Assembly: GCF_003334785.1 (NCBI RefSeq)
Contig: NZ_QOWV01000007.1
Source of the DNA: Escherichia coli
GTDB lineage: Bacteria > Pseudomonadota > Gammaproteobacteria > Enterobacterales > Enterobacteriaceae
Direction: 5' to 3' (one strand)
DNA: 64,000 nt
The translations under genes were made by a program, and so were the position numbers. Numbering within the stretch: the stretch's first letter is position 1; each line of letters opens with the position of its first letter. The notes beneath the pieces are model-generated. The model ran no database searches, was not told the DNA's origin, and saw nothing but the letters and a program-made list of their open reading frames with translations. Positions 4,544 through 29,105 of the stretch are shown here, piece by piece.

Positions 4544-4909
4544 TTATTTTTGCACTACGATATTTTCTTGTGACGGATCAACATGCTGCATTTGCAGCTT
4601 TTCCGTGGCGATCCTTTCCACCCGGCTATGGTCGCCGAGCGCATTCTCTTCAAGGATCAGGTTGCGCCATTCAATGTCTAAAGCATCTCGCTCCAGCACC
4701 AGTTGTTCGCGCTGAGCGGTCAGTAAACGGGTATGGTGCGCCGTGGTTACCACAGTCACCGCCGTCAAAATAATGCAAATGAACAGGCAGAGTGGCAGCT
4801 TCCCAAATCGCAAAAGATCGTCACCGATAACACCAGGCAATGCATGGCGCTCGTGGCTTCCCATCGATCCTTTAACTTTGCTTAGAGCTTCTGTCACTCT
4901 GCTGATCAT
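4544..4909 (-). CDS. ftsL: Cell division protein FtsL
   Basis: 121-aa ORF with single TM segment; 4-bp overlap with rsmH stop; position between rsmH and ftsI. Confidence 0.93.
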
Positions 4910-5847
4910 GCATTCGTCCTCTCTGCAATACGCAGAACTGAACTACGGGCACGAGGGTTCTCAGCCACCTCTTCTTCGCCCGGCATTAACTTGCCTAGTG
5001 CTCGCAGCTGACGGCCACCCAGTTTTTTGAGCTGCTCTTCAGTCATCGGTAACCCTGCCGGAACTTGCGGACCGCGGCTGTTTTCACGCATAAAACGTTT
5101 CACAATACGGTCTTCCAGCGAGTGGAAGCTGATGATCGAAAGCCGCCCACCCGGGGCCAGCACGTTGAGCGAGCTTTTTAGCGCCTGCTCTATCTCCTCC
5201 AGTTCACTGTTTACCCAAATGCGCACCGCCTGGAAGGTACGGGTCGCGGGATGTTTAAACTTATCTTTCACCGGCGTTGCAGCAGCCACGACTTCCGCCA
5301 GTTCTTTGGTGCGGGTCATCGGCTGTTCGCGGTTACGCTCGACAATGGCGCGGGCAATGCGTTTGGCAAAACGCTCTTCACCATAGGTTTTCAATACCCA
5401 GGCGATATCGGCTTCTTCTGCGGTTTGTAGCCATTCAGCGGCTGACTGCCCACGGGTTGGGTCCATACGCATGTCCAGCGGACCATCGCGCATAAAGGAA
5501 AAGCCACGTTCAGCATCATCAAGTTGCGGTGAAGAGACGCCAAGATCGAGGAGAATGCCGTCGATCTTGCCGATAAGATCGCGCTCGGCAACGTATTCGC
5601 CCAGCGCGGAGAAAGGTCCGTGGATGATGGAGAAGCGCGGATCATCAATAGTCTTCGCAACGGCGATAGCCTGCGGGTCGCGATCGATCGCCAGCAAACG
5701 CCCCTCTTCGCCAAGCTGCGAGAGGATCAGACGTGAGTGACCACCGCGACCAAAAGTCCCATCAATGTAGATGCCATCAGGACGGATATTGAGGCCATTA
5801 ACGGCTTCATCCAGCAGCACCGTAGTATGTTTATAGTTTTCCATCAT
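4906..5847 (-). CDS. rsmH: 16S rRNA m4C1402 methyltransferase RsmH (MraW)
   Basis: Track ORF 4906..5976 is an upstream extension; conserved N-terminus [16 protein letters not shown] begins at internal ATG 5847 (313 codons); SAM-binding [10 protein letters not shown]. Confidence 0.94.
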
Positions 5848-5848
5848 T

Positions 5849-6307
5849 TTATAGAGACAAGTCCTGCAGTCGCTCCGATAAGTCTCCGGTAGCCAACTGC
5901 TCTGCGTCGATATCTTCCTTGACCTGTTGATGCCAGGTTGTTTCATCCCACAGCTCAAACTTGTTGAACTGTCCAACCAGCATCACTTCTTTTGTCAGCC
6001 CGGCATGTTGCCGCAGTACTGGCGCGATTAACAATCGACCTGCGCCATCCATCTGACATTCGCTGGCATGACCTAACAGTAGGCGCTGCACACGGCGCTC
6101 AACCGGGTTCATGCTCGACAGACGCGATAATTTTTGCTCGATAATTTCCCATTCAGGCAGGGGGTAAAGCAGCAGGCACGGGTGATAAATGTCAATGGTG
6201 CAAACCATTTGACCGGCAGCGTTCTCAAGCAGCTGTTCCCGATAACGGGTAGGCACTGATAAGCGCCCTTTGCTGTCGAGATTGACTAACGTTGCTCCCC
6301 GGAACAT
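5849..6307 (-). CDS. mraZ: Transcriptional regulator MraZ
   Basis: N-terminus [19 protein letters not shown] at ATG 6307 (track ORF starts at upstream TTG 6343); 152 codons; first gene of dcw cluster. Confidence 0.93.
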
Positions 6308-6325
6308 GCCAGCCTCACCCCTTAT

Positions 6326-6350
6326 TCCCACTTTGCCCCACAATTTCCCA
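6326..6350 (-). promoter_or_regulatory. Three direct TGGGN repeats at 10-bp period (MraZ operator) in mraZ 5' leader
   Basis: Plus strand shows tccca/cccca/tccca at 6326-6330, 6336-6340, 6346-6350; on the coding strand TGGGA-N5-TGGGG-N5-TGGGA, 19-43 nt upstream of the mraZ ATG. Confidence 0.75.
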
Positions 6351-6354
6351 CTGA

Positions 6355-6390
6355 AAGGAGTTTACGGAGCTGAGGAAAAGCTTGTCAAGC
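6355..6390 (-). promoter_or_regulatory. Candidate Pmra promoter (-35 TTGACA)
   Basis: Minus-strand TTGACA (plus tgtcaa about 6383-6388) followed about 17 bp later by gtaaac-like -10; position fits the dcw cluster promoter. Confidence 0.5.
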
Positions 6391-6861
6391 CAGTCACAAG
6401 GCATACCGAGGTAAAAAACCCGATGTTTACGGCTAATATCAGCGTTGTTTATTTTACGTCCAACGTGCGAAGCAAATTAACGTTATGAATAGCTGTAAGA
6501 AAAAATCCCTCATCGTCATCACCGTTTTAAAATGACTCACTATTTTCCACAGCAAATATAAAGTGTCAGTTTGCGACGCGAGCGGCATTTTAGGACATAT
6601 CTTCCCCGGTTAACAGTCCTTGTTACGTCTGTGTGGCGCTTGATGCCAGCGGGTTTGCGCAAAAGCAAAGAAAAGTGTTTGTTAAATCGGCAATTCATCG
6701 CCGCATGTAACAAAATAATGCAAAAACGCGCTGTCGATATCACTTAATTATTGTGAATTTCAGCTGGTGAGTTAATTAACGGGCGGGTTTAAAAGCATTT
6801 ATCAATAATAGTCAGGAATAGTCTTATTTACTTTAAGCATATTGATGTCCAGTCCCGTACT

Positions 6862-6899
6862 CTACGCGCCAGAGGGAAATTCACCTGGCGCGTATTTTT
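6862..6899. terminator. Hairpin with T-run just 3' of cra stop
   Basis: acgcgccag ... ctggcgcgt inverted repeat at about 6864-6893 followed by attttt on plus strand; lies 10-45 nt downstream of cra stop. Confidence 0.5.
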
Positions 6900-6908
6900 G
6901 TTCGCGGC

Positions 6909-27602: not shown

Positions 27603-29105
27603 ATGACGATTTTTGATAATTATGAAGTGTGGTTTGTCATTGGCAGCCAGCATCTGTATGGCCCGGAAACCCTGCGTCAGGTCACCCAACATGCCGAGCA
27701 CGTCGTTAATGCGCTGAATACGGAAGCGAAACTGCCCTGCAAACTGGTGTTGAAACCGCTGGGCACCACGCCGGATGAAATCACCGCTATTTGCCGCGAC
27801 GCGAATTACGACGATCGTTGCGCTGGTCTGGTGGTGTGGCTGCACACCTTCTCCCCGGCCAAAATGTGGATCAACGGCCTGACCATGCTCAACAAACCGT
27901 TGCTGCAATTCCACACCCAGTTCAACGCGGCGCTGCCGTGGGACAGTATCGATATGGACTTTATGAACCTGAACCAGACTGCACATGGCGGTCGCGAGTT
28001 CGGCTTCATTGGCGCGCGTATGCGTCAGCAACATGCCGTGGTTACCGGTCACTGGCAGGATAAACAAGCCCATGAGCGTATCGGCTCCTGGATGCGTCAG
28101 GCGGTCTCTAAACAGGATACCCGTCATCTGAAAGTCTGCCGATTTGGCGATAACATGCGTGAAGTGGCGGTCACCGATGGCGATAAAGTTGCCGCACAGA
28201 TCAAGTTCGGTTTCTCCGTCAATACCTGGGCGGTTGGCGATCTGGTGCAGGTGGTGAACTCCATCAGCGACGGCGATGTTAACGCGCTGGTCGATGAGTA
28301 CGAAAGCTGCTACACCATGACGCCTGCCACACAAATCCACGGCAAAAAACGACAGAACGTGCTGGAAGCGGCGCGTATTGAGCTGGGGATGAAGCGTTTC
28401 CTGGAACAAGGTGGCTTCCACGCGTTCACCACCACCTTTGAAGATTTGCACGGTCTGAAACAGCTTCCTGGTCTGGCCGTACAGCGTCTGATGCAGCAGG
28501 GTTACGGCTTTGCGGGCGAAGGCGACTGGAAAACTGCCGCCCTGCTTCGCATCATGAAGGTGATGTCAACCGGTCTGCAGGGCGGCACCTCCTTTATGGA
28601 GGACTACACCTATCACTTCGAGAAAGGTAATGACCTGGTGCTCGGCTCCCATATGCTGGAAGTCTGCCCGTCGATCGCCGCAGAAGAGAAACCGATCCTC
28701 GACGTTCAGCATCTCGGTATTGGTGGTAAGGACGATCCTGCCCGCCTGATCTTCAATACCCAAACCGGCCCAGCGATTGTCGCCAGCTTGATTGATCTCG
28801 GCGATCGTTACCGTCTACTGGTTAACTGCATCGACACGGTGAAAACACCGCACTCCCTGCCGAAACTGCCGGTGGCGAATGCGCTGTGGAAAGCGCAACC
28901 GGATCTGCCAACTGCTTCCGAAGCGTGGATCCTCGCTGGTGGCGCGCACCATACCGTCTTCAGCCATGCACTGAACCTCAACGATATGCGCCAATTCGCC
29001 GAGATGCACGACATTGAAATCACGGTGATTGATAACGACACACGCCTGCCAGCGTTTAAAGACGCGCTGCGCTGGAACGAAGTGTATTACGGGTTTCGTC
29101 GCTAA
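27603..29105 (+). CDS. araA: L-arabinose isomerase AraA
   Basis: Start [20 protein letters not shown] at 27603 (track ORF begins 24 nt upstream); 500 codons. Confidence 0.96.

Follow-up and report, generated by a model that had tools for sequence, protein, structure and literature searches.

In Escherichia coli, MraZ binds to a sequence repeat located downstream of the −10 box of Pmra and represses the first 11 genes, from mraZ to murC (Eraso et al., 2014, as summarised in PMC7761207 and PMC8475190). With the R15A exchange, overproduced MraZ is no longer lethal for E. coli; for repression in Bacillus subtilis, both DXXXR motifs of the protein are required as well as the repeats, whereby the triple of MBRs is unique in the B. 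subtilis genome (bioRxiv 10.1101/2022.02.09.479790). In Mycoplasma genitalium, four MraZ subunits of an opened ring occupy one box each by means of a beta-sheet cradle and in a cooperative manner, and the transcription start site (TSS) lies inside box 1 (PMC12957436). Repeat-dependent repression has been demonstrated directly in B. subtilis (bioRxiv 10.1101/2022.02.09.479790) and in M. genitalium (PMC12957436). Loss of mraZ in E. coli causes no obvious phenotype (PMC8475190), and for this reason the physiological weight of the operator is regarded as modest.

Here, we analyzed a stretch of E. coli DNA of 64,000 nucleotides (contig NZ_QOWV01000007.1, hereafter the window), in which a sequence-only reading had pointed to phased repeats in the mraZ leader as an MraZ autoregulatory operator. 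The definition of the MraZ operator family was taken from PMC12957436 and from the B. subtilis study (bioRxiv 10.1101/2022.02.09.479790). For comparison, species-representative genomes were scanned and the 80 closest mraZ loci were collected, all of them from Enterobacteriaceae and with MraZ proteins that are 88–95% identical; these yielded 76 distinct leaders of 140 nt. We are confident that the site is the MraZ autoregulatory operator at Pmra (mraZ1p), which heads the E. coli dcw cluster. This operator is already described in E. coli (Eraso et al., 2014) and no new biology is added to it here; what is gained is a refined description with a GTGG core, a strict 10-bp phase, and a transcription start on box 1.

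Gene context and promoter

The 1.1 kb around the operator are 100% identical to E. coli K-12 MG1655, and therefore the locus is the published MraZ operator at Pmra/mraZ1p. With window positions 5800–6900 as query, the 1.1-kb mraZ promoter region was found in 5,424 of the 5,426 complete E. coli genomes from RefSeq. Three of the approximately 5,424 matches are located on records typed as plasmids and not on chromosomes. The RefSeq names at the locus are “division/cell wall cluster transcriptional repressor MraZ” for mraZ, and rsmH:

5849–6307, minus strand: mraZ coding sequence, 152 aa, the repressor acting on the boxes (TIGR00242, RefSeq annotation)
4906–5847, minus strand: rsmH (mraW), the first co-transcribed downstream gene, within the repressed operon (TIGR00006 with 452 bits, RefSeq)

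The mraZ ORF encodes a full-length MraZ (TIGR00242, 227 bits versus a cut-off of 98). The protein encoded immediately downstream of the boxes is a cognate MraZ with two DXXXR motifs, DSKGR at residues 11–15 and DGAGR at residues 87–91, and with the base-contacting Lys/Arg residues, whereby K13, R15, and R91 align with the DNA-contacting residues K13, R15, and R86 of M. genitalium MraZ (PDB chains). On the minus strand, mraZ is followed by rsmH, ftsL, and ftsI, so that the position at the head of the division/cell-wall cluster, which had been assigned from the sequence, is confirmed. Pmra drives the promoter-proximal half of this cluster, and it is already established that the operator helps to set the levels of FtsL, FtsI, and the Mur enzymes in E. 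coli.

The promoter and the transcription start were located as follows:

6383–6388, minus strand: −35 hexamer TTGACA of Pmra (mraZ1p), from a consensus scan, invariant in 76 of 76 leaders
6359–6364, minus strand: −10 hexamer TAAACT of Pmra, from a consensus scan, invariant in 76 of 76 leaders
6351, minus strand: transcription start (G), giving a 44-nt leader, from the Cappable-seq TSS at MG1655 89590 (+) with a score of 27.2

TTGACA-18-TAAACT matches 10 of the 12 consensus positions and was the sole strong sigma-70-like match near mraZ in the consensus scan, and the spacer of 18 nt between the −35 and −10 hexamers is kept in all 76 leaders. The MG1655 gene coordinates were used to map genome positions onto the window (window position = 95941 − genome coordinate), and this mapping reproduced six gene ends of cra, mraZ, and rsmH. 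The site at MG1655 89590 is the only Cappable-seq TSS listed between 89360 and 89783. It corresponds to the first G of box 1, which places the −10 hexamer at −13 to −8 and the boxes at +1 to +6, +11 to +16, and +21 to +26. A 5′ UTR of 38 nt has been given for mraZ1p in a secondary quotation (PMC5089854); this value, which differs by 6 nt from the 44-nt leader of the Cappable-seq data, leads to a start at 6345 with the boxes at −6 to +20. A start at 6345 would leave 13 nt from the −10 hexamer to +1, which is unusually far, and the Cappable-seq start at 6351 fits the invariant TAAACT much better. With either value, the array is inside the region that RNA polymerase must occupy. The boxes hence overlap the TSS of the promoter that directly precedes mraZ and heads the dcw cluster, and transcription starts at 6351 (Cappable-seq) or 6345 (older value) and not far upstream, where a start would have spoken against a promoter-proximal operator according to the sequence-only reading. 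The TTGACA element that this reading had recognized is present as well; however, the boxes are not located just downstream of it but start 32 nt further on, just past the −10 hexamer.

Two weaker Cappable-seq starts on the same strand, MG1655 89360 (score 9.4) and 89237 (score 2.1), correspond to window positions 6581 and 6704 (minus strand), which are located in the 600-nt cra–mraZ spacer upstream of Pmra. Promoter-like matches from the consensus scan at 6569..6542 and 6775..6747 coincide with neither of them.

Operator anatomy and conservation

Read on the minus strand, TTGACA (6388..6383) is followed by the 18-nt spacer, TAAACT (6364..6359), CCTTTCA, and then box 1; from there on the order is GTGGGA, AATT, GTGGGG, CAAA, GTGGGA, ATAAGGGGTGAGGCTGGC, and the ATG at 6307. 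The elements of the array are:

6346–6351, minus strand: MraZ box 1, GTGGGA (includes the previously noted TGGGA at 6350..6346), GTGG invariant in 76 of 76 leaders
6336–6341, minus strand: MraZ box 2, GTGGGG (includes the previously noted TGGGG at 6340..6336), 10 bp from box 1 in 76 of 76 leaders
6326–6331, minus strand: MraZ box 3, GTGGGA (includes the previously noted TGGGA at 6330..6326), 10 bp from box 2 in 76 of 76 leaders
6313–6321, minus strand: GGGGTGAGG, likely the mraZ ribosome-binding region, from the sequence, well conserved with a mean entropy of 0.42

The motif TGGGA-N5-TGGGG-N5-TGGGA, which had been reported for plus-strand positions 6326–6350, 19–43 nt upstream of the mraZ ATG, is exact on both counts when read on the minus strand. 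The family definition asks for at least three direct repeats built on GTG(G/T); here three of them start at 6351, 6341, and 6331, and the period of 10 bp (4-nt core plus six spacer nucleotides) puts them on one face of the helix. The segment GGGGTGAGG is likely a Shine-Dalgarno sequence, as judged from its position; the GGGG within it is in phase with the boxes, yet it is no GTGG box. A fourth in-phase box, as known from Mycoplasma and Burkholderia, was looked for at this place, but 6321..6318 reads GGGG and not GTG[GT] and was rejected as a canonical box. Likewise, none of the 76 Enterobacteriaceae leaders has a fourth GTG[GT] in phase.

Within the 64-kb window, TGGG-N6-TGGG-N6-TGGG occurs a single time on both strands, and the phased TGGG triple was found in 0 of 100 dinucleotide-preserving shuffles of the window. 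The frequencies per position and strand in the window are 0.0031 for TGGG and 0.0046 for GTGG, from which approximately 0.004–0.012 triples per window and, by calculation, approximately 0.3–0.9 triples per 4.6-Mb genome are expected. The triple pattern alone would not be significant genome-wide; the operator gains its significance from being within 50 nt of the mraZ start and from being conserved, rather than from the pattern alone. Further MraZ sites in the window were searched for and rejected, since the other GTGG-N6-GTGG occurrences, at 28340 and 14150, are two-box pairs only and their number is at chance level (two seen outside the operator versus approximately 2.7 expected for the whole window).

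The comparison of the 76 leaders shifts the repeat unit by one base. GTGG-N6-GTGG-N6-GTGG is present in 76 of 76 leaders, whereas three copies of TGGG are found in the E. coli window only. All 12 columns of the GTGG cores are invariant, and of the 51 columns that separate the −10 hexamer from the ATG, only 19 are invariant in total; for 12 columns chosen in advance to be all among these 19, the calculated chance is approximately 3e-7 if the 76 related leaders are treated as independent. The fifth base is G in 75 of 76 leaders for boxes 1 and 2, while for box 3 it is T (52 leaders), C (13), or A (10), and G in E. coli alone. An invariant TT precedes box 2 and an invariant AAA precedes box 3, and the bases that directly precede box 1 and those that follow boxes 2 and 3 vary freely. 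Thus, of the phased TGGGN repeats that had been proposed, the phasing is retained (10 bp from box to box in 76 of 76 leaders) but the unit is not: GTGG, which begins one base further left than TGGGN, is the conserved recognition core. The original E. coli MraZ paper reportedly gave the repeat unit as TGGGN. GTG(G/T) boxes are also described in the cryoEM work of 2026 (PMC12957436), in agreement with the GTGG core.

The distance from the −10 hexamer to box 1 varies from 6 to 8 nt across the 76 leaders, and that from box 3 to the ATG is 17–19 or 26–28 nt. Such a rigid phase inside the array, with insertions and deletions allowed on both sides, is what is predicted for a protein that reads successive helix turns on one face. 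The comparison covers one family, so that the footprint is shallow and the block from −35 to +26 is strongly conserved throughout; it is the periodic pattern and the fixed phase, and not conservation as such, that separate the operator from the promoter.

In 20 leaders, from Buttiauxella, Cedecea, Kosakonia, and others (L052, L054, L056, L058, L063–L071, L073–L075, and L077–L080), there is an insertion of approximately 10 nt, i.e., one repeat period, between box 3 and the ribosome-binding site, for example GAAAGGGGAATTTAAGGGTGAGG. Their in-phase fourth position reads GGGG and not GTGG, like 6321..6318 in K-12. The insertion may go back to the duplication of one unit or represent a degenerate fourth box. 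One of the collected records (L021, CACSKA010000010.1) is titled Chryseobacterium sp. 18061, although its MraZ is 92% identical to that of E. coli and its leader is enterobacterial. This assembly probably carries a wrong label or is contaminated; a sister record of that project is Citrobacter.

Within E. coli, 1,309 of 5,424 genomes match K-12 exactly over 6318–6392. The aligned representatives commonly differ from K-12 at 6371 in the promoter spacer, where they have C and K-12 has A; C is also found in 65 of the 76 leaders from other genera, and this position may be a small polymorphism in promoter strength. The boxes are identical in 5 of the 6 E. coli strains aligned. The fifth base of box 3 (6327, minus strand) is G in 6 of 6 strains; each of the remaining 75 distinct leaders, E. 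albertii included, has T, C, or A at this place. Strain WS3294A (L084, NZ_CP035819.1), the only genome in the 90–95% identity band, has a 5-nt deletion, CAGTG, at the equivalent of window positions 6349–6353, which takes away the core of box 1 together with the mapped transcription start and is unique among the 5,424 complete genomes. Either a natural mutation of the operator or an error in the assembly could account for this deletion. The box-3 G, the K-12 spacer allele, and the strain without box 1 are natural variants that could serve as tests of box function.

Mode of action and alternative readings

The reading of the arrangement as an MraZ autoregulatory operator is supported by the MraZ ORF, by the 100% identity to MG1655, and by the binding published for K-12 (Eraso et al., 2014, as summarised in PMC7761207 and PMC8475190). 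The analysis shows how the array is built, where it is located with respect to promoter and start, that core and phase are conserved, and that a cognate repressor with the contact residues is encoded next to it; the mode of action best supported is negative autoregulation by occlusion. Since the three direct GTGG-core boxes follow each other at one helical turn (10 bp), they would present one face of the DNA from +1 to +26, on which adjacent subunits of an MraZ oligomer may each insert a beta-sheet cradle (K13, R15, R91) into the major groove of one box. The resulting cooperative complex would cover the start site and the initially transcribed region and would block RNA polymerase from binding, from opening the DNA, or from clearing the promoter. 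This would lower the transcription of mraZ and of the promoter-proximal dcw genes and so establish a negative feedback. By analogy to the Mycoplasma structure, E. coli MraZ would presumably use the same subunit-per-box, open-ring geometry, and the exact initiation step at which it acts is likewise presumptive.

The G-runs of the array also allow for another reading, in which they chiefly form a G-quadruplex that modulates mraZ transcription or translation independently of MraZ. On the minus strand, which is the non-template strand, GGG-N7-GGGG-N6-GGG-N5-GGGG is located in the 5′ UTR at 6349..6318 (GGGAAATTGTGGGGCAAAGTGGGAATAAGGGG), i.e., four G-runs of at least three with loops of 1–7 nt, and it is one of only two canonical G3+N1-7 motifs in the 64-kb window. 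For the S. aureus mraZ promoter it has been reported that a G-quadruplex folds in vitro and mediates repression by the ligand NMM, and conserved G-quadruplex-forming motifs were reported in mraZ promoters of Gram-negative bacteria with E. coli strains in the set (PMC11796246). Within the Enterobacteriaceae, however, only 1 of the 76 leaders has the canonical motif, since the third G of the run in box 3 (6327) occurs in E. coli alone, and a G-quadruplex was therefore rejected as the feature selected in the family. What is conserved instead, GTGG and the 10-bp phase, is not needed by a G-quadruplex, and no quadruplex was predicted in the minimum-energy fold of the leader RNA with G-quadruplex energies enabled. 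We consider it very improbable that the G-runs act chiefly in this way; most likely, the motif arises in the Enterobacteriaceae as a side effect of protein-binding boxes that are rich in G. A narrower version concerns the E. coli lineage alone, where, among the 76 leaders, box 3 changed from GTGGT/C/A to GTGGG (6327) and thereby completed the four-run motif. That E. coli gained in this way a second, MraZ-independent and structure-based control on Pmra or on mraZ translation, on top of the ordinary operator, is very unlikely; if true, the motif would be a species-specific target for G-quadruplex ligands. The other canonical motif of the window (GGGGAGTTGGGGGAATAAGGGCGGAGGG, 42872–42899, minus strand) is located antisense within the ORF 42709..43698 (+).

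The MraZ operator also has to be weighed against readings in which the repeats work as RNA or do not work as repeats at all. A start at 6351 places all three boxes in the transcribed 44-nt leader, and elaborate dcw leaders exist in some bacteria, such as UpsM in Rhodobacter (PMC5089854), so that a structured 5′ leader (riboswitch-like, an sRNA target, or a translational-control element for mraZ) could be imagined. In the predicted fold of this leader the boxes are wholly unpaired, though, and the folding energy is no better than that of shuffled sequences (z = +0.17 and −0.13 for the two candidate starts); moreover, strict 10-bp direct repeats are a signature of the DNA helix and not of RNA pairing. 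The search of the leader against Rfam gave no match at E ≤ 1. Inside the mraZ coding sequence there is a weak Rfam hit to osmY, with 19.9 bits compared to a gathering score of 46.9. With no Rfam match in the leader and a fold like that of shuffled sequence, the RNA element was rejected, and we regard it as having next to no chance of being correct. The conservation could, alternatively, reflect a constraint on the promoter and the initially transcribed sequence, or the site of another DNA-binding protein, with the repeats being incidental. In favor of this are the high conservation of the −35 to +26 block as a whole and a chance expectation of approximately 0.3–0.9 4-mer triples per genome. 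Against it, the invariant columns track the 10-bp repeat exactly, with variable positions in between, and GTGG or GTG(G/T) arrays of the same period precede mraZ in Firmicutes and Mollicutes despite unrelated promoters (bioRxiv 10.1101/2022.02.09.479790, PMC12957436), and so does, in Burkholderia, a GTG motif repeated every 10 bp (PMC7761207). In addition, box-dependent MraZ binding is published for E. coli, as summarised in PMC8475190 and PMC7761207. Incidental repeats are hence about as implausible as the RNA element.

Comparison with known systems

The operator of the window is the same sequence as the Pmra operator of E. coli K-12, without any difference, with three direct repeats that lie between the −10 box of Pmra and mraZ (Eraso et al., 2014, J Bacteriol 196:2053, as summarised in PMC7761207 and PMC8475190). 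Compared to that description, the core is now GTGG and not TGGGN, and the start is placed on box 1 by Cappable-seq.

Among the more distant systems, the MBRs of B. subtilis are similar in that three GTGG[A/T]G repeats with 4-nt spacers and a 10-bp period are located in the mra promoter (bioRxiv 10.1101/2022.02.09.479790). The two differ at box positions 5 and 6, where B. subtilis has GTGG[A/T]G and E. coli GTGGG[A/G]. In B. subtilis, the operon is shorter and the physiological target is a different one (ftsL), and co-expressed MraW rescues E. coli, but not B. subtilis, from the lethality of MraZ (bioRxiv 10.1101/2022.02.09.479790).

The Mollicutes consensus AAAGTG[T/G] (quoted in PMC8475190) is matched by box 3 of E. 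coli, AAAGTGG. However, Mollicutes, including the M. genitalium cryoEM complex, have four boxes compared to three in E. coli, and the identity between Mollicutes and E. coli MraZ is only approximately 28%. Free MraZ is an octamer or nonamer in Mycoplasma, whereas a dodecamer has been proposed for E. coli (PMC12957436).

At PmraBc of Burkholderia cenocepacia, the repeats are located downstream of the −10 box, overlap the TSS, and are bound by MraZ in EMSAs, but there are four repeats of 7 nt with 3-nt spacers in a leader of 100 nt (PMC7761207). Finally, PmraZ of S. aureus resembles the E. coli locus in that its promoter contains G-rich tracts compatible with a quadruplex motif (PMC11796246); in S. 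aureus the folding was shown in vitro, whereas the E. coli motif is predicted from its sequence and is not conserved in Enterobacteriaceae, being present in 1 of 76 leaders.
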